Position numbers and translations under genes: made by a program
The notes under the pieces: model-generated
What the model saw: the letters and a program-made list of their open reading frames with translations, nothing else
The model's database searches: none
Told to the model about the DNA's origin: nothing
Shown here: one piece after another, positions 36,418 to 61,182 of the stretch
How positions within the stretch are numbered: the stretch's first letter is position 1
How the letters are laid out: each line of letters starts with the position of its first letter
DNA from: Actinoplanes sp.
GTDB taxonomy: Bacteria > Actinomycetota > Actinomycetes > Mycobacteriales > Micromonosporaceae
DNA: 64,000 bases
Direction: 5' to 3'
Assembly: GCA_032160305.1 (NCBI GenBank)
Contig: JAVHVY010000376.1
Location: 6,143 to 70,142 of the forward strand

Positions 36418-37497
36418 CTAGCCGCCTGACGGTCGGGTCGCGCCGCGGGACGCCAGTTGCCGTGCGTGCTGCAAAGTGGCGAGAAGCGCGAGAGTGGATT
36501 CGGCACCTTGGTTCACATTAGGCCCATCTGGAGTGAGCCCGTCATATCCTCCACCGGTTTGCGGGTCGAACATGACCACCGACGTATCGTTGTCGCCCAG
36601 GAACCAGGCGATCGCCTGGAGCAACGGCGCGTCCCACCGATCGTCACCGGTCACGGCGGCCGCAGTGGCACAGGCGTCCGCGGTGGCGGCGGTCTCGATC
36701 GCCTGCTGGTCGTGCCGGTGCTTGGGGATCCCGGGCCGCCAGCCGCCGACCGGCACGGTCGACAGGTGGCCCCGGTGCTCCTGCATCCGGCAGAGCCAGG
36801 ACAGCATCCGCAGCCCGTCGGCGAGCAGCGGCTCGTCGCCGAGCAGGTCGCCGGCCGCGATCAGCACCTCGGCCAGCGCCGGGTTGGCGTAGGTCAGCTC
36901 GCGCTCCGGCCACACCCACTCCGGGTCCGAACCGGGCATCCCGATCACGGTCGCCGCGTCGGCCAGCAGGTCGGCGGCCGTCGACGAGTGCGGGTCGGCG
37001 CGCAGCACCTCCGCCGCGCCCAGCCCGGCAAAGGCCATCGCCCGCGACCACGTCGAGCGTTGCCGGGCGGCGATCCCGAACGCCTCGCGAGCCTCGGCCC
37101 GGATCCACGGCACGCTGCTGCGGCTGGCGGCCGTGCCCAACCCCCAGACCGCGCGGCCCCACCAGTCTCCCGTCGACGGCTCGTCGGTCCAGCGTCGGTC
37201 GTGGCCCATCCGGTTGCGGCACCGCCCGTCCGGGGCGAGCGCGTGGGTCAGGAAGGCCAGATACCGTTCGGCCAGGCCGGCGACCACGGCGGTGGGCTGG
37301 CGCTCCCGGCTCACGACCAGCAGTCCGCGGGCCACGTCGTCGACGCAGTAGCCGTGCTCCCGGCGCGCGATCGCGTTACGGGCGTGCTCGAACAGGCCGG
37401 TGTCGTCGGAGAGCCGGGCGAGGTGCGCCCAGTTCGGCTCGGGCGCGTCGGCGAGGGTGAGCGGCGGCGGTACGAGCCGCAGGGTCTGCACAGTCAC
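36418..37497 (-). CDS. Glycosyltransferase-associated six-hairpin-like domain protein
   Basis: HLARLSDDTGLFEHA, GYCVDDVARGL, DQQAIE, WFLGDN, GGGYDGL...NQGAESTLA. Fold assignment is from family knowledge. Confidence 0.75.
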   Translation of the reverse strand: MTVQTLRLVPPPLTLADAPEPNWAHLARLSDDTGLFEHARNAIARREHGYCVDDVARGLLVVSRERQPTAVVAGLAERYLAFLTHALAPDGRCRNRMGHDRRWTDEPSTGDWWGRAVWGLGTAASRSSVPWIRAEAREAFGIAARQRSTWSRAMAFAGLGAAEVLRADPHSSTAADLLADAATVIGMPGSDPEWVWPERELTYANPALAEVLIAAGDLLGDEPLLADGLRMLSWLCRMQEHRGHLSTVPVGGWRPGIPKHRHDQQAIETAATADACATAAAVTGDDRWDAPLLQAIAWFLGDNDTSVVMFDPQTGGGYDGLTPDGPNVNQGAESTLALLATLQHARQLASRGATRPSGG

Positions 37498-37616
37498 GCG
37501 GTGCCTGCCTTAGGCGCGCGCTCGCGGCCTTCGCTGCGCTCGGTGCACTCGCTCACGCCCGTGCCGGCCTTAGGCGTGCGCTCGCGGCCCTCGCTGCGCT
37601 CGGTGCACTCGCTCAT
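37494..37616 (-). repeat. Two tandem 60-bp units forming a 40-aa mini-ORF coupled to both neighbours (MIRU-like)
   Basis: Units 37501-37560 and 37561-37620. MSECTERSEGRERTPKAGTG-VSECTERSEGRERAPKAGTA. ATG overlaps the upstream TGA; TGA overlaps the downstream GTG. Confidence 0.75.
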
Positions 37617-38761
37617 GCCGGCAGCTTCGCGGCGTTCGGGATCTGGCTGCGGTCGGCCAGCAGCCGGGTCGCGAGCGCCGCGTAGCGGGCGGCGACGGCG
37701 GGCCAGCGCAGGGTCGGGCCGCCGGTCAGCCCGCTCAGCCCGGCCACGTGTGGCTGAGTGATCAGATGCCCGATCGCCGCGGCCATCGCCTCCGGGTTCT
37801 GGTGCGGGACGAGCAGCCCCGGACCGTCGGCGAGCAACTCGACGGCGTGCGGGAACTCCGTCGCGACCACCGGTACGTCCGCGCCGACCGCCTCGATCAG
37901 CACCCCCGAGGTGACCTGCTCGGTCGAGTCGTACGGCAGCAGCACCACGTCGGCCGAGCGGATCAGCCGGCTCAGGGTGGCCTGGTCGTGATAGACGTCG
38001 TCCCAGGTCACCGAGTCGGCCACGCCCAGTTCGGCGGCCAGCGCCTGCAGCGACCCGCGGTAGACGTCGCCGTCTTTGGCGAGCACGTTCGGGTGGGTCC
38101 GGCCGGCCACGGTATAGGTCGGGGCCGGGTGCCGGTCCTGCAGCAGGGCCAGCGCGCGCAGTGCCCATTCGATGCCCTTACCCGGGCCGAGCAGGCCCCA
38201 GGTGAGCAGATGCGGGCGCTCGCGATGGTCGCGCGGGGCGCTGGAGTGGCTGGCCGCGCCGTGCGGGATCACCGTCACCTTGCGCGGGTCGACGTGGTAT
38301 CCGGCGGTCAACCGGTGCCGGGCGGTGTCGGTCATCGTCACCACGGCGTCGGCCCGCGCGGCCATCTTCTCCAGGACCGCACGCTGCAACGGGTCCGGGT
38401 TGCTCAGCACGGTGTGCAGCACGACGATCGAGGGCACCTTGAGCCCGCGCAGCAGCGGCAGCACCTCCGCGCCGGCGTCGCCGGGGTAGATGCCGTACTC
38501 GTGCTGGAGGATCGCCACGTCGAAGCGGTTCAGGGCGTTGGTCGCGGCGACCCAACCGCCCAGTGCGCCGGTGCGCCAGGTGTGCACCACCTGGGGCGCC
38601 TGGCGGTCCAGTGGCAGTCCGCCCGCCTTGTCGTCGGCCAGCAGGCGGACCACACCGCTGCCGCCCAGCGTGTTCAGGTGGGTCGCGAGTGCCGCATTGA
38701 ACGTCGCCAAACCGCATTGGGTCGGTGGATAGGTGCTGAGAAAGCCGTACGTCGCGGGCAT
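37613..38761 (-). CDS. GT4 family glycosyltransferase
   Basis: STYPPTQCGLATF, LQHEYGI, WGLLGPGKGIE, QVTSGVLIEA; ATG 38761. Confidence 0.9.
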   Translation of the reverse strand: MPATYGFLSTYPPTQCGLATFNAALATHLNTLGGSGVVRLLADDKAGGLPLDRQAPQVVHTWRTGALGGWVAATNALNRFDVAILQHEYGIYPGDAGAEVLPLLRGLKVPSIVVLHTVLSNPDPLQRAVLEKMAARADAVVTMTDTARHRLTAGYHVDPRKVTVIPHGAASHSSAPRDHRERPHLLTWGLLGPGKGIEWALRALALLQDRHPAPTYTVAGRTHPNVLAKDGDVYRGSLQALAAELGVADSVTWDDVYHDQATLSRLIRSADVVLLPYDSTEQVTSGVLIEAVGADVPVVATEFPHAVELLADGPGLLVPHQNPEAMAAAIGHLITQPHVAGLSGLTGGPTLRWPAVAARYAALATRLLADRSQIPNAAKLPA

Positions 38762-42051: not shown

Positions 42052-43290
42052 GTGCACACCTTCGCGACCTCAACCGTTGCCCGCCGGCGTCTGCGGGCCG
42101 GGCTGGCCGTGGCCGTCCTCGCTGCCGGCCTGGGCTGGGCCCCGCACGCCGCCCAGGGTGACGAGGTCACCCCGCCGGTAGCCACCGAGTCAGCGGAGCC
42201 CACGGCACCGCCCGAGCCGGTCCCGCCCACGGCACCGCCCGAGCCGGTCCCGCCCACAGCACCGCCCGAGCCGGTCCCGCCCACAGCACCGGCAACGCCG
42301 GTCCCGCCGACCGCGACTGTCCCGCCCCCGCCGAGGGTTACGCCCCCGGTGTCGGTGACGCCGGTCGCAGTGCGGATCATGCCGCTCGGGGACTCGATCA
42401 CCGCGGGTGTTGGCAGCAGCGCCGGCAGCGGCTACCGGCAGGTGCTGCGGGGCGAGCTGGCGGCGAACGGGTTGCGCGTGGACTTCGTCGGCTCCCAGCG
42501 GCGCGGGCCGGGGCCGGACGCCGACAACGAGGGGCATCCGGGCTGGCGTACGGACCAGCTCATCGACGGCCTGCGACCGTGGCTGGCCGCGGCCCGGCCC
42601 GACGTGGTGCTGCTCGACATCGGCACCAACGACCTGCTCCGCAACGTCCACCCGGACTCCGCGCCGGGTCGCACCGCCAACTTGATCGACCGGATCACCC
42701 GCCAGCTGCCGAAGGCGCGGGTAATCGTCGCGAAACTGCTGGTCGTCGGGCGGGACGCGGCCCGGTTCCGGCGTTTCAACGCGGCCCTCGCCGCCGTGGT
42801 GGCGGCGCGCGGGCCCCGGGTGACGATGGCCGACATGTCCCGGGTGCCCGCCGCCGAGACGGGTGACGGCGTGCACCCGACCGACCTCGGCTACCGGCAG
42901 ATGGCCTACCAGTGGTACCAGGCGCTGCGCCCGGTGCTGGCCGGCCGCGCCGGGCGGTGGATGCCGGCGCCCGACCCGTTCCCGATGCCGGCGGTGCGGC
43001 TCTCCCGTCCGGTCGCCGTCCGGCGGGGCGCCGCGGTCGTCCTCACGGGACGCTTGACCGCGCGGCTGACCAGCGGCGATCTCGGTCGGGTGCCGGTGCG
43101 GTTGACGTACCGCCGGGCCGGTACCGACCGCTGGGTGTCGATGGGCGCGCGAAGCACCGATGCCGCGGGCGCGGTGATCTTCAGCCGCCGCCAGCAGCCT
43201 TCGGGTTACTACCAGGCGACCGTCGTGAGTGGTCGCGCCGCCGGCCGGCGCAGCCCGGTGATCCGCGCCCCGGCCGGCGCAGCCCGGTGA
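42052..43290 (+). CDS. Secreted SGNH/GDSL hydrolase with Pro-rich linker
   Basis: Signal-like N-terminus; block I MPLGDSIT, GHPGW, DIGTND, DGVHP. Confidence 0.85.
   Translation: MHTFATSTVARRRLRAGLAVAVLAAGLGWAPHAAQGDEVTPPVATESAEPTAPPEPVPPTAPPEPVPPTAPPEPVPPTAPATPVPPTATVPPPPRVTPPVSVTPVAVRIMPLGDSITAGVGSSAGSGYRQVLRGELAANGLRVDFVGSQRRGPGPDADNEGHPGWRTDQLIDGLRPWLAAARPDVVLLDIGTNDLLRNVHPDSAPGRTANLIDRITRQLPKARVIVAKLLVVGRDAARFRRFNAALAAVVAARGPRVTMADMSRVPAAETGDGVHPTDLGYRQMAYQWYQALRPVLAGRAGRWMPAPDPFPMPAVRLSRPVAVRRGAAVVLTGRLTARLTSGDLGRVPVRLTYRRAGTDRWVSMGARSTDAAGAVIFSRRQQPSGYYQATVVSGRAAGRRSPVIRAPAGAAR
42199..42306 (+). repeat. 27-bp coding tandem repeat x4 (PTAPPEPVP)
   Basis: CCCACGGCACCGCCCGAGCCGGTCCCG units; the fourth is diverged. 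Confidence 0.9.
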
Positions 43291-43336
43291 TCCGCGCCGC
43301 CGGCCGGCGCAGCCCGGTGATCCGGGCCGCCGGCCG
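43234..43336 (+). repeat. 30-bp tandem repeat x3.5 across the SGNH stop; one unit is 29 bp
   Basis: CGCGCCGCCGGCCGGCGCAGCCCGGTGATC at 43234, 43264 (1-nt deletion), 43293 and partial at 43323. Confidence 0.85.
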
Positions 43337-43437
43337 CTGACCCGCGGTCAGCTCGCCGCGGGCCGAATCCAGACCTGACAGAGCCCTTCGGAGCAGGAAC
43401 GATTCCGAACCTGCCGCCTCAAGGCAGACATCTGCGG

Positions 43438-58018: not shown

Positions 58019-59266
58019 GTGACAGTCGATCCCCCCGCGGGGGACATTGATGAGATTCGCCTCGCCATCCGCAAGGAGTGCCGCATGCCCGCCGAAACGC
58101 CGATCGATTCGAAACGAAAGGTCGAGCGCGGAGAGTTGACCCCCGGCTGTCCCGCGCACGCCGGCCCGGACGACGTCTGGAAGGTGCAGGACTTCGGCAC
58201 CGCCCGGGCGATGCTGCGCCACACCGAGACCCGGCAGGCCGGATTCGGCATCGAGCGGATGGACCGGAGGAGCGGCAAAATGCGGATGCCGGTGCTCTTT
58301 CGCGATGGTGCGGAGCACCGCGAGCACCGCCGGCAGACCGCCAAGTACTTCACCCCGAAGAAGGTCGACACCTCGTACCGGGAGCTGATGGGGCGGCTTG
58401 CCGATGAGCAGTGCGATCTGCTGCGCCGCCGGGGCGAGGCGGATCTGTCCCAGTTGTCGTTCCGGCTGGCCGTGGCCGTCGCCGCCGAGGTCATCGGCCT
58501 CACCGAGAGCGTCCCCGGCATGGCGAAGAGGCTGGAGCGGTTCTTCGAGGAGCCCGACGGCACGCCCGGCCGGCGTAACCCGAAAGCGGCGTACAAGCAA
58601 TGGCGGTCGCACCTGAACATGGCGCTGTTCTACTGGCGTGACGTGCGCCCGGCCGTGGCCGCGCGCAAGGCCAAGAGCCGCGACGACCTGATCTCGCACC
58701 TGCTCGGCGAGGACTGTACCAAGCCCGAGATCCTCGGCGAGTGCATGACGTTCGCCGCCGCCGGCATGATCACCACCCGCGAGTTCATCACGGTCGCGGC
58801 CTGGCACCTCTTCAGCGACGACGCCCTGCGGCTGGCCTACGTGGAAGGCACCGAGAAGCAGCGCGTCGCGATCCTGCACGAGATCCTGCGACTCGAACCG
58901 GTCATCGGCAACCTGTTCCGCCGCACCACAGCCGAGATCCAGGTCGGCGACGTGACGATCCCGGCCGGCGCCCACGTCGACATCAGCGTCGCGGCGACCA
59001 ACCTGGACTCGGCCGCGGTCGGCGCCGACCCCGGCGCGGTGTGCCCGGCCCGGCTCGTCGCCGACGGCGTCGGCGACGCCGGCCTGTCCTTCGGCGACGG
59101 CCCGCACCGCTGCCCGGGCGCCTACATCGCCATCCAGGAGACCGACATCTTCCTGACCAAGCTGTTCGCCCTGCCCGGCCTGACCCTGGTCCAGGAGCCG
59201 ACCACCCGGATCCGGCCGGAGATCGCCAGTTACGAACTGGTCGGCATGCGCCTTAGGGTGAACTGA
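58019..59266 (+). CDS. Cytochrome P450
   Basis: I-helix AAGMITT, EILR (ExxR), heme motif FGDGPHRCPG. Start may be ATG 58085. Confidence 0.92.
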   Translation: MTVDPPAGDIDEIRLAIRKECRMPAETPIDSKRKVERGELTPGCPAHAGPDDVWKVQDFGTARAMLRHTETRQAGFGIERMDRRSGKMRMPVLFRDGAEHREHRRQTAKYFTPKKVDTSYRELMGRLADEQCDLLRRRGEADLSQLSFRLAVAVAAEVIGLTESVPGMAKRLERFFEEPDGTPGRRNPKAAYKQWRSHLNMALFYWRDVRPAVAARKAKSRDDLISHLLGEDCTKPEILGECMTFAAAGMITTREFITVAAWHLFSDDALRLAYVEGTEKQRVAILHEILRLEPVIGNLFRRTTAEIQVGDVTIPAGAHVDISVAATNLDSAAVGADPGAVCPARLVADGVGDAGLSFGDGPHRCPGAYIAIQETDIFLTKLFALPGLTLVQEPTTRIRPEIASYELVGMRLRVN

Positions 59267-59275
59267 CCCGTTCGC

Positions 59276-59403
59276 CGAGGACCGGGACGGCGAAGCCGAT
59301 CTCCTTGGTGACGGCTAAGCGGGGACTAACTGCCGGTTCATCGAGGACCGGGAAGGCGAAGCCGATCTCCCTGGTGACGGCGAAGCGGGGACTAACTGCC
59401 GGT
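59276..59403. repeat. Tandem duplication, two 62-bp units with 66-bp period
   Basis: CGAGGACCGGGA(C/A)GGCGAAGCCGATCTCC(T/C)TGGTGACGGC(T/G)AAGCGGGGACTAACTGCCGGT at 59276 and 59342; 3 substitutions. Confidence 0.85.
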
Positions 59404-61182
59404 CTGGCCGGATTCGTACCGGAGGGTTTCAGCGACGTTGTCGGCTTCCACGTGTCCCGGTCCGGACACCGGCGGCGCGGCCGGGCGCTCATTGCGGCGC
59501 GGCCGCGCGGTCCTGGCTCGCCGCGCCGGTTCGGTGAGCTCCTTCGGAGCGACCGTCGGCTGGGTGGCCCTCCGCGGCCGCCGGCCGCGGACCGCCCGCG
59601 CCGTCGCCTCCGGCTGTCCGTCGTCTACGGACGGCCTTCGCCCGGGCGAGATCCCGCCCGTCGCCGCCGTCCGCTCCCGGTGATCACCCAGATCCGATCT
59701 GGACGGGGTACGGTCTGCCCTGGTCGTAGTCGGTCCCGGCTCGAATACGACGACCAGTTCGCCCTCGATGGTGACGAAGTCTGAGGCCGGCTCCGCCTCA
59801 GCGGCTCTGGAGCGCGCTGATCCAGGCCCGTTCCGGGCGGCTCCGCTGTGCCGTGATCCGGGCTCGTTCCCGGCGGCTCCGGTACCTCTGGCTCCGGGCT
59901 TAGGGGCGGTCGCCGCCTGCATGGGGACGTCGCGGGACTGGCCCTCGTCGGCCCCGGCTGCCGTCGGCTCGTCGGCCCTGGCTGCCGTCGGCTCGTCGGC
60001 CCCGGCCGTCGGCCTGTCGGCCCTGGCTGCCGTCGCCCTTACGACCGGCTCCGGCTTGCTTTCGGCGGTGGCCGGACCGTCCGGCGGGCGCGCTTGTCCT
60101 CGCCTGGGGTCGTCGCTCAGATCCTGGAGCACCACCCCGGCGGTGGTCAGGCGTTCGGCCACCCCGATGTCGATCCGTTCTTCCCGGCGGACGGCTGCCG
60201 ACAGCCCCAGGTACAGCAGGGCGCCGAGCAGGACTGCCAGCACACAGCCGGCCGGCAGTACGACCAGGTCCGTGCGGGCGGCGTCCGGCAGCAGCGCCCG
60301 CGTCGCGGTCGTCGTGCCCAGCACCCACTCCCGCTGACCCGAGTGGAAGGTCTGGGTGCGCCGCACGTCTCCGGTGCGGTTCTCGGATACCCGGGCGACC
60401 TGGGTCAGCAACCCGCTCGCCGAACGGGTCAGCAACGTCGCGTCCAGCAGGCCGCCGGACTCCGCGGACAGGCTCGCGGTGAGCAGGTCGGTGCCACGGA
60501 CACTCAGTGACAGATAACCGGCCGGCGTGCGGTCGCCAGTCTCGTAGACCGGCGCGAGCACGTCGAAGGACACCTGTTGCCGTGGTGGGGGCAGCGCCGC
60601 GTCGCCCGGCAGCAGGTACGGGTCCGAGAGCGCGATGCCGCCGGCAGTGCGGGCCAGCCGGGCGCCCTCGACCTCGGCCGGGGTGGCTGCCTGGTCGGCC
60701 CCGATGGCGGTGGCGGGCCCGCCGTTCAGGCCGCGGGCGAAGACGGTGAACAGGTGTTGCCGGGCGCCCTTGACCGGGTCGATCGTCAGCCCGGGCACGC
60801 CGCGGGAACGCCAGGTCGCGGCGACGGCGCCGAGCTGGTCGGGGGAGGCGGGGACGAGGAACCGCACGGCGACGGCCGCGGGCAGGTGCTGGGCCACGAT
60901 CGCCGAGGTGATCCCGGTGAAACCGGCCGCGGTGGGCGTCGGCAGGGCGTTCAGGCCGGCGGCGCTCGCGCGTACGGTATCGGTGTAGGCCGAAAGCTGA
61001 CCGCTCACCGTGCTCTGCAGGGCCGCGCTGGTGTCGGTCATCCGGATTTCGGCACTGCGTTGCAGGGCGTTGTGCAGGTGGGCGGCGAGGCCCAGCGACA
61101 CAGCCATCCCGCCCAGAACCATGACGAGGGCGAAGAAAACGGACCACCCGCGTGATAAGCCGCCGGTGCTTTTCCTCGCCAT
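59392..61182 (-). CDS. CHASE-like membrane sensor lacking an output domain, low-complexity tail
   Basis: Two TM segments flank a CHASE-like region (ALSDPYLL, VLAPVY, GYLSLSV); no H box or GGDEF after TM2; 24-bp repeats (ADEPTAAR) in the tail. Confidence 0.7.
   Translation of the reverse strand: MARKSTGGLSRGWSVFFALVMVLGGMAVSLGLAAHLHNALQRSAEIRMTDTSAALQSTVSGQLSAYTDTVRASAAGLNALPTPTAAGFTGITSAIVAQHLPAAVAVRFLVPASPDQLGAVAATWRSRGVPGLTIDPVKGARQHLFTVFARGLNGGPATAIGADQAATPAEVEGARLARTAGGIALSDPYLLPGDAALPPPRQQVSFDVLAPVYETGDRTPAGYLSLSVRGTDLLTASLSAESGGLLDATLLTRSASGLLTQVARVSENRTGDVRRTQTFHSGQREWVLGTTTATRALLPDAARTDLVVLPAGCVLAVLLGALLYLGLSAAVRREERIDIGVAERLTTAGVVLQDLSDDPRRGQARPPDGPATAESKPEPVVRATAARADRPTAGADEPTAARADEPTAAGADEGQSRDVPMQAATAPKPGARGTGAAGNEPGSRHSGAARNGPGSARSRAAEAEPASDFVTIEGELVVVFEPGPTTTRADRTPSRSDLGDHRERTAATGGISPGRRPSVDDGQPEATARAVRGRRPRRATQPTVAPKELTEPARRARTARPRRNERPAAPPVSGPGHVEADNVAETLRYESGQTGS

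Follow-up and report, generated by a model that had tools for sequence, protein, structure and literature searches.

Can a repetitive element settle between two overlapping genes of a bacterial operon and leave the path of the ribosome unbroken? The question is raised by a locus in the window, i.e., the whole stretch of 64,000 nucleotides that was analyzed (contig C181, positions 6143-70142), which belongs to a 6.06-Mb Actinoplanes genome assembled from a soil metagenome in 505 contigs. On the minus strand, at 37494-37616, two tandem repeat units of 60 and 59 nt, measured between RTGA boundaries, lie between a glycosyltransferase gene and a gene for a conserved protein (Table 1). A preliminary description had likened the pair to the MIRUs of mycobacteria. 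Most probably, the two units make up an array of a dispersed and non-autonomous family of MIRU type, found in the Micromonosporaceae, and this array occupies a former 4-nt RTGA overlap of stop and start codons.

That near-identical tandem units stand between the two genes is evident from the sequence itself and from the output of Tandem Repeats Finder (37494-37619; score 210, period 60, 91% matches, 2.1 copies). The window contains exactly two instances of a 25-nt core, versus zero expected from 100 shuffles. Along the minus strand the order is CTGCCGGC ATGA GCGAGTGCACCGAGCGCAGCGAGGGCCGCGAGCGCACGCCTAAGGCCGGCACGGGC GTGA GCGAGTGCACCGAGCGCAGCGAAGGCCGCGAGCGCGCGCCTAAGGCAGGCACCGC GTGA CTGTGCAG. Both units had been taken for exact multiples of three, which is true of unit 1 but not of unit 2, with its 59 nt between RTGA boundaries. 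Because the length of unit 1 is 3n, it is joined in frame to unit 2, and because the total of 119 nt is 3n+2, the final TGA of the array is in frame. Translation from 37616 to 37494 yields MSECTERSEGRERTPKAGTGVSECTERSEGRERAPKAGTA and a stop, and thus bears out the claimed ORF of 40 sense codons with its ATG on the upstream stop and its TGA on the downstream GTG. Against R1, a sequence-only covariance model of the family, unit 1 gave a match at C181:43695-43758 (E=9.7e-14) and unit 2 a match with E=3.8e-11; the closest copy of unit 2 at any other locus (C391:5613) is 93.7% identical. Comparison of the locus with a plasmid collection (blastn, distant mode) gave no match, and an Rfam scan of it returned only mir-8515 at chance level (23.6 bits versus a gathering score of 100).

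The upstream product matches the Pfam families Glyco_trans_1_4, Glycos_transf_1 and Glyco_transf_4, and all of its NCBIfam GT4 matches fall under their curated cut-offs. Neither Pfam nor NCBIfam gave a match for the downstream 359-aa protein. Its orthologs are 60-83% identical across the Micromonosporaceae (the best, at up to 83%, being from Actinoplanes species), and its start is backed by orthologs that open M-S-V-S-L-R-L-V-P-P-P at the matching place. A GH130-like gene comes after it.

Table 1. Positions in the window of the repeat units, their parts and the flanking genes.
Feature	Position	Strand	Description	Basis
Repeat unit 1	37557-37616	-	60 nt, from ATGA (37616-37613) up to the base before the next GTGA	Alignment
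Repeat unit 2	37498-37556	-	59 nt (3n+2), from GTGA (37556-37553) up to the base before GTGA (37497-37494)	
Mini-ORF, 40 codons plus stop	37494-37616	-	ATG overlaps upstream TGA; TGA overlaps downstream GTG	Translation
Shine-Dalgarno-like tail TAAGGCAGG	37504-37512	-	6 nt upstream of the GTG of the downstream gene	Sequence
Counterpart of this tail in unit 1, TAAGG	37568-37572	-		
Predicted imperfect hairpin, unit 1	37576-37616	-	Positions 1-9, ATGAGCGAG, pair with 33-41, CGAGCGCAC	RNAalifold and pair counts
Predicted hairpin, unit 2	37516-37556	-	GTGAGCGAG pairs with CGAGCGCGC	RNAalifold and pair counts
Upstream gene, GT4-family glycosyltransferase, 414 aa	37613-38857	-	TGA stop (37615-37613) inside first ATGA	ORF list
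Downstream gene, conserved 359-aa protein	36418-37497	-	GTG start (37497-37495) inside last GTGA	ORF list

A dispersed family with filled and empty sites

The units of the window are far from unique. An iterated nhmmer search of the genome produced 82 matches, 76 of which (E <= 0.01) were grouped into 54 loci, and the R1 model recovered 78 units. The family thus amounts to 76-78 units at about 54 loci in 6.06 Mb, with units in many relatives as well, in agreement with the non-autonomous interspersed family that had been proposed. The units share the layout (A/G)TGA(C/G)CGA..GCACCG..GCG.AGC.AGGGCC.G.AG.GCA(T/C)G, followed by a variable tail (often AAGGAGG or AAGGTGG with GC.C.GC) and the next (A/G)TGA. 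Copies from different loci are up to 97% identical, and 30 of 51 short units have a partner at another locus with 90% identity or more. A search of the literature on Actinoplanes, Micromonospora and other actinomycetes brought up, in the papers covered, no mention of a MIRU-like repeat and no printed instance of the core sequence, and the family is apparently previously undescribed.

With respect to the genes, the orientation of the units is strictly one-way. At 48 of the 54 loci, RTGA is present at both ends and a long same-strand ORF of high third-position GC begins at the last RTG; clean boundaries are absent from the other six. About 30 loci have a long ORF that ends at the first TGA. About 18 have no such upstream gene, and there the element lies at a start codon and not at a coupled junction; a native Shine-Dalgarno (SD) sequence precedes the first RTG in 11 of these. 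Given these loci without an upstream partner, what the sites have in common is a start codon followed by A, whether or not two genes are coupled there. The genome as a whole has 546 cases in which long ORFs overlap directly by RTGA, together with 120 relay chains, of which 33 belong to the repeat family.

Insertion at coupled junctions, as the preliminary description had it, is documented by empty orthologous sites. No family unit was found at the junction of the window in any of 80 related loci from Actinoplanes, Paractinoplanes and other Micromonosporaceae. Of the 34 junctions that were read directly, most are bare GTGA or ATGA overlaps (...GCGTGAGC... or ...GCATGAGC...), and ...GTGCCCGCGTGAGCGTCTCCCTGCGGCTG... 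is an example of such a direct overlap. The operon's next junction provides a filled and an empty site for comparison. In Actinoplanes sp. NPDC005259 (locus L008) it is empty, with a simple ATGA (GGCATGACCGCAATC), while in Actinoplanes sp. NPDC026623 (L065) the sequence at the same place reads GGCATGA, two units of 59 nt and CCGCGATC; the difference is exactly 2x59 nt after the ATGA (ATGA + 118 nt + ATGA). At this next junction, a single 89-nt unit is present in each of two further loci (L013 and L040) and an empty GTGA in the window; different RTGA-bounded inserts occupy the junction of the window in three other species (L017, L027 and L028). The inserts at these operon junctions are independent gains at RTGA start sites. 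The 12 nt that precede the first and the last RTGA are marginally more alike within than between loci (p 0.03-0.1); this flank-tail similarity being marginal only, no duplication beyond RTGA is claimed.

Copy number, for which variation had been suggested, does vary between loci of the genome (arrays of 1-4 units) and between species (zero, one or two units at the next junction, and arrays of up to five units in relatives); within the population, no variation was seen at the locus of the window. Two units were present there in all of three metagenome runs, one of which contained a variant with a 9-nt deletion, and no copy-number polymorphism was seen in four soil metagenomes, a weak test given that the contigs break in the repeat.

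Units recognized by R1 occur in 16 of 18 congeneric genomes, at 0-46 per genome versus 75 in the source genome by the same search, and are patchily distributed over 13 of 59 genera of the Micromonosporaceae. The large sister genus that carries the family is presumably Micromonospora. Among 401 genomes of the order from outside the Micromonosporaceae only two convincing R1 matches were obtained, both in one family (f2). The remaining weak matches elsewhere in the order were rejected, some since they lie inside a conserved protein-coding gene (ELRKGQEVMLNEAL) and others as unconvincing on inspection.

Frame rule, Shine-Dalgarno tail and predicted hairpin

The lengths of the units obey a simple rule. 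Among 67 units, 38 measure 59 nt, 11 measure 89 nt, six 60 nt and four 57 nt, with few others, and 54 of the 67 have a length of 3n+2. Each 3n+2 unit forms a cistron complete in itself, of 20 codons (59 nt) or 30 codons (89 nt), whose RTG overlaps the preceding TGA and whose TGA overlaps the next RTG. A gap-free chain of mini-ORFs leads from the first RTG to the exact downstream start at 41 of the 48 loci with clean boundaries and is broken at seven. Four distinct indel patterns were observed, each of which restores 59 nt. One of these patterns is a compensated frameshift that separates two peptide subfamilies, MTDCTERSEGQEG.. and the abundant MTDCTAAKQGPGGH.., and therefore it is the length and the nucleotide sequence that are conserved, and not the peptide.

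An SD-like tetramer is located 4-16 nt before the last RTG at 45 of the 48 loci, versus 21% of random RTGA sites. The tail also follows the length class: it was found in 70 of 73 3n+2 units versus 14 of 63 3n units (Fisher 2.5e-20, without phylogenetic correction), a figure to be read, like the other length, SD and covariation statistics given here, in the light of units that are kin by descent and hence not independent events.

The same dichotomy extends across genera. In a survey of sixty loci from seven relatives representing six genera, the congeners and one further genus (g19) carry chiefly 59-nt units with an SD, and the relay is intact at 18 of 20 congener loci and at five of ten g19 loci. 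Three other genera (g17, g57 and g14) have chiefly 57-nt units (3n). The 57-nt units of other genera rarely include an SD (4 of 51), are open without exception (51 of 51), and their first ATG is in frame with the downstream ATG. In the 59-nt and the 57-nt design alike, the path of a ribosome stays open all the way from the stop of the upstream gene into the downstream one, which would be difficult to account for in units that are never translated. Taken together, the 3n+2 lengths, the compensating indels, the connection of the SD with the length class and the 41 of 48 unbroken chains strongly imply, at the level of sequence, a ribosome relay through the mini-ORFs.

The units are further predicted to form a hairpin around the start codon. 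According to RNAalifold, positions 1-9 of the family pair with positions 33-41 in a helix that encloses the RTG, with the arms RTGANCGAS (5') and SNNGNGCAY (internal). The predicted helix is supported by covariation. On 49 units, 95.9% of the cells are paired, whereas sliding of the partners gives under 45%, and 36 double changes were observed versus 10.2±2.5 in shuffles. Tallies over 127 distinct units from eight genomes show the exchange of pairs directly: C-G 58, A-U 36 and G-C 28 at pair 9-33; A-U 98, G-C 19 and G-U 6 at pair 1-41, which involves the R of RTG; and C-G 58, G-C 35 and U-A 7 at pair 5-37. The 89-nt units have the same predicted outer helix, with the additional 30 nt in the loop. 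In unit 1 of the window, the arm at positions 1-9 includes the stop/start overlap and pair 1-41 is an A.C mismatch; in unit 2 the predicted pairs are G1-C41, T2-G40, G3-C39, G5-C37, C6-G36 and G9-C33.

These features can be combined in a model in which the canonical unit would serve as a translation-transparent cassette. It opens with RTGA, such that the upstream gene would still stop and an RTG start would overlap that stop; it continues with a short open frame of 20 codons (59 nt) or 30 codons (89 nt), the peptide of which is not conserved; and it closes with an SD-like tail followed by another RTGA, which overlaps the next start, while the predicted hairpin would enclose the 5' start codon. 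A ribosome terminating on the upstream gene would melt the hairpin and reinitiate at the overlapping RTG, read the mini-ORF, terminate at the next TGA and, aided by the SD, reinitiate at the next RTG. Translational coupling would thereby outlast the insertion. With the 57-nt type, the ribosome would instead read straight into the downstream protein. Translation of the mini-ORFs and action of the hairpin in RNA are suppositions of the model.

Alternative explanations and significance

A regulatory function offers the most serious alternative, one that we consider possible though rather improbable. The units would then be exapted modules kept for the benefit of the operon, with array length tuning expression: the hairpin, for example, might stabilize or process the mRNA, and a strong SD (AAGGAGG) might set downstream translation independently of the upstream gene. 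Conservation of the hairpin with compensatory changes would fit such a role, as would an SD that, in 45 of 48 loci, precedes the start of the downstream gene by 6-9 nt, and the presence of about 18 loci at the 5' end of a gene lacking a coupled upstream gene, where a portable ribosome-binding site would matter. There is also a precedent in M. tuberculosis, whose MIRU-containing senX3-regX3 spacer drives regX3 expression by itself (PMC4213456). The patchy occupancy, however, is more in keeping with an element that spreads than with a regulator that is conserved, congeners having 0-46 copies versus 75 units here and most orthologous sites being empty; moreover, the flanking genes are functionally unrelated, and the 57-nt variant is abundant despite its loss of the SD.

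The hairpin could work in single-stranded DNA during mobilization rather than in mRNA, and the family might be moved in this form by a transposase of the Y1 (HUH) type, much as REP/RAYT or IS200/IS605-derived elements are, with RTGA as the tetranucleotide target. Such targeting would be enough to set the orientation with respect to genes, and the units do show a single subterminal hairpin beside an invariant tetranucleotide, strict orientation and no duplication beyond the 4-7 nt of RTGA(CCG). The source genome, which has the highest copy number, also contains two intact Y1_Tnp genes and three fragments. Nevertheless, this route appears unlikely: copy number does not go with Y1_Tnp presence in 12 congeners, three genomes with 23-32 units (G001, G003 and G009) have no Y1 gene while a fourth (G012) has no units despite a Y1 gene, and nothing resembling the family was found in the 1.5 kb around the Y1 genes. 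Random targeting of RTGA followed by survival would predict many copies at RTGA sites in spacers away from starts, a pattern that was not seen. Assignment to the REP/RAYT or IS200/IS605-derived elements was rejected, neither Y1 co-occurrence nor shared ends nor another sequence relation having been found. Nor do the units show the terminal inverted repeats, or the target-site duplication of a DDE transposase, that mark MITEs: the consensus 5' end RTGACCGAC pairs with internal positions 33-41 and not with the 3' end, and the orientation is strictly one-way.

It is most improbable that the mini-ORFs encode a functional micropeptide of about 20 aa (MTDCTERSEG...) and the family is one of small genes. 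The frame is indeed open in 71 of 72 59-nt units and in all 51 57-nt units, the ERSEG motif recurs and third-position GC in the mini-ORF frame is high; a compensated +1/-1 indel, though, has created the second abundant subfamily with another peptide (..CTAAKQGPGGH..) and unchanged nucleotide sequence and length, the 89-nt units insert ten unconserved codons, and a peptide gene would hardly be expected in so many tandem or near-identical copies per genome. An origin by a single local tandem duplication, or as an artefact of assembly, merits next to no credence, for although replication slippage can make short repeats and the genome is fragmented into 505 contigs, it is refuted by related units at over 50 loci elsewhere in the genome and in the genomes of named Actinoplanes isolates, and by independent soil-metagenome contigs that cover both units of the window exactly (X1, 37250-37610; X4, 37331-37610).

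As a MIRU-type family, these repeats bear on wider matters. MIRUs serve worldwide as typing markers in tuberculosis, and how they move and whether their mini-ORFs are of any importance have been standing questions since 1997. The family constitutes a second, independent system in actinomycetes that are non-pathogenic, cultivable and rich in genomes. Its assets are clean filled and empty sites, a range of zero to about 80 copies per genome, two frame designs and a covarying hairpin, and it lets one test whether selection shapes repeats to keep translational coupling; phylogenetic profiling could seek a mobilizing function. On the practical side, gene callers will miss or mis-start genes beside units, the 57-nt type may give proteins repeat-encoded N-terminal extensions, and the arrays are candidate VNTR markers for the Micromonosporaceae.

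Comparison with known systems

The REP/BIME elements with their RAYT (Y1) transposases, and the IS200/IS605-derived hairpin elements, resemble the family in their short GC-rich imperfect hairpins beside a conserved tetranucleotide, in their many copies and in having no mobility genes of their own. REPs, however, are found in sequence that is not translated, mostly beyond a stop codon and often as inverted pairs, and have no frame constraint. By contrast, the Actinoplanes units are co-oriented with the genes, closed in frame, furnished with an SD and overlapped with stop and start codons, and no link with Y1 was found for them.

Rickettsia palindromic elements (RPEs) insert within protein-coding genes, whose products come to include them. 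Together with other translation-compatible selfish repeats, they are comparable in being shaped by translation and in having a frame-keeping length. The 57-nt (3n) variant would work like an RPE, leading in frame into the downstream gene, whereas the 59-nt type, lying between genes, forms a mini-cistron of its own.

Another counterpart is the native 4-nt overlap of genes, ATGA or GTGA, with coupling by termination and reinitiation (Huber et al. 2019; PMC6728339). The element rebuilds the same signal at each of its ends. It differs in interposing one to four additional mini-cistrons, and therefore coupling would need serial reinitiation.

The closest counterparts are the MIRUs of Mycobacterium. 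As defined by Supply et al. (1997), in the summary given by Delihas (2011; PMC3184786), these are units of 40-100 bp, with 40-50 copies per genome, in operon spacers; their ORFs overlap the adjacent genes, and tetranucleotide direct repeats, filled and empty sites and GC-rich inverted repeats complete the definition. In each testable feature of that summary, the architecture claimed at the outset agrees with it. The Actinoplanes family is similar in unit size, in its tens of copies, in co-directional placement and orientation, in small ORFs that overlap the flanking stop and start codons, in tetranucleotide repeats at filled sites with empty orthologs, in GC-rich internal inverted repeats, in tandem arrays and in length classes set apart by an internal segment. 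A unit of M. avium MIRU292 (PMC7977185) is likewise bounded by ATGA, 53 nt in length (3n+2) and open, with GGAGGAG before the next ATG.

The two systems differ in host, MIRUs being mycobacterial and the present family belonging to the Micromonosporaceae, and in unit length, which is 53, 62 or 77 nt in MIRUs versus 59, 89 or 57 nt here. The MIRU core pattern was detected in a single genus of another family (g13), in 17 of the 401 genomes and with as many as 32 copies, but never in the Micromonosporaceae; conversely, the R1 model gave no significant non-coding match in the family of g13. Likeness in sequence is limited to the word GAGCGNAGCGA(T)G, which stands in the same frame in both (p about 0.02). 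The longest word in common is 13 nt, a length equalled in 20 of 1000 shuffles. The HMM of the family gave no match on MIRU292, the best global alignment score between the two was equalled by 57 of 500 shuffles and is not significant, and the MIRU HMM scored at most 4.9 bits on Actinoplanes units. Sequence homology to mycobacterial MIRUs would thus be at best suggested.

A bolder reading, which we offer tentatively and regard as doubtful, would unite the two. MIRU-type repeats would then form an old, order-wide class of translation-transparent elements homing to RTGA start codons, the Micromonosporaceae family would share ancestry with the mycobacterial MIRUs, the start-codon hairpin would take part in a start-specific insertion mechanism, and lineages would switch between two frame solutions. 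Shared ancestry is proposed since GAGCGNAGCGA in the same frame, RTGA bounds and 3n+2 units are common to both groups. If this were true, a 3n+2 unit with an SD would represent a relay cistron, and a 3n unit without one an in-frame read-through into the downstream protein. Relative to what is described for MIRUs, the details added by the Micromonosporaceae family are the dichotomy of 3n+2 units with an SD versus 3n units without, the compensated indels and the covarying start-codon hairpin.

The junction of the glycosyltransferase and 359-aa genes

In three other Actinoplanes genomes, the stop/start overlap between the glycosyltransferase (GT4) gene and the 359-aa gene carries RTGA-bounded inserts that differ from the MIRU-like family of the window. 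These inserts suggest that further repeat families of MIRU-like kind exist, and that this junction is an insertion hot spot. At the window locus itself, a soil-metagenome contig (run X2) harbors a first unit shortened by a 9-nt deletion at position 37581, where a GCGCTCGCT-like 9-nt sub-repeat recurs within the unit; the deletion would preserve the frame. The 359-aa protein (36418-37497), encoded between the GT4 and GH130-like genes, gave no match in Pfam or NCBIfam. It is conserved throughout the Micromonosporaceae (60-83% identity), and is also found in one Actinopolymorpha genome.

Relay ORFs, tandem repeats and transposase genes in the same genome

Relay mini-ORFs of 25-27 codons, overlapping the upstream stop and the downstream start, were observed between long ORFs at three places in the genome of the window (G000), and may represent a second repeat family, rarer than that of the window. 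Two additional tandem repeats, likewise located between long ORFs, form 40-codon relay ORFs running from GTGA to GTGA, and are unrelated in sequence to the window family. The other tandem repeats listed for the window also lack kinship with this family. The genome encodes two intact Y1 transposases (IS200/IS605-type or RAYT-like), together with three gene fragments; a link between these genes and the repeat family was sought, but none was detectable.

Inserts, relay ORFs, tandem repeats and transposase genes (L, loci from other genomes; C, contigs of G000)
Feature	Location	Strand	Details
RTGA-bounded insert, GT4/359-aa junction	L017:2925-3000		sequence GTGAGCGAGCGCAGGATGCC...GGCGGAGTGTCGGTATGA
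RTGA-bounded insert, GT4/359-aa junction	L027:2915-2995		hairpin GGGTTCGGC...GCCCGAACCC
RTGA-bounded insert, GT4/359-aa junction	L028:2910-3000		
Relay mini-ORF	G000:C272:21614	+	end ...GCGAAGCGGAGTGTCGGCATGA, similar to L017 and L028 inserts
Relay mini-ORF	G000:C465:13411	-	
Relay mini-ORF	G000:C255:37730	+	
Tandem repeat, 40-codon relay ORF	G000:C73:2919	+	period 60 nt
Tandem repeat, 40-codon relay ORF	G000:C18:10477	-	
Tandem repeat	window 42198-42308		27 nt x4.1, 94%
Tandem repeat	window 43234-43365		30 nt x3.5, 95%
Tandem repeat	window 59261-59403		66 nt x2.2, 90%
Tandem repeat	window 59944-60035		24 nt x4.0
Intact Y1 transposase gene	G000:C260:11964-12317		
Intact Y1 transposase gene	G000:C471:424-789		

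Related or similar units in other genera and families

Units of 57 nt, without the Shine-Dalgarno-like tail, occur in other genera of the Micromonosporaceae (loci L125-L144, L158 and L161-L163; genomes G125, G075, G093 and G031), in arrays of up to five units with which the downstream ATG is in frame. If translation starts at the first ATG, the downstream protein would be extended N-terminally by 19 aa (MSERTERSEGREGMPGQHG) per unit.

Two genomes assigned to another family of the same order contain a full-length unit (L093, G539:C330:1561-1623; E=1.1e-12) and a related partial unit (L094, G392:C89), respectively, which could reflect either horizontal spread or bin contamination; the G539 assembly comprises 402 contigs, with 2.8% contamination.

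A mycobacterial MIRU array, composed of three 51-nt units (a multiple of three), was observed in a Mycobacterium-like genome (G435; L118:1480-1660). Its boundaries are GTGC rather than RTGA, and a TGA is present within its reading frame. In length class and boundaries, this array resembles those arrays of the Micromonosporaceae repeat family whose units are a multiple of three in length.
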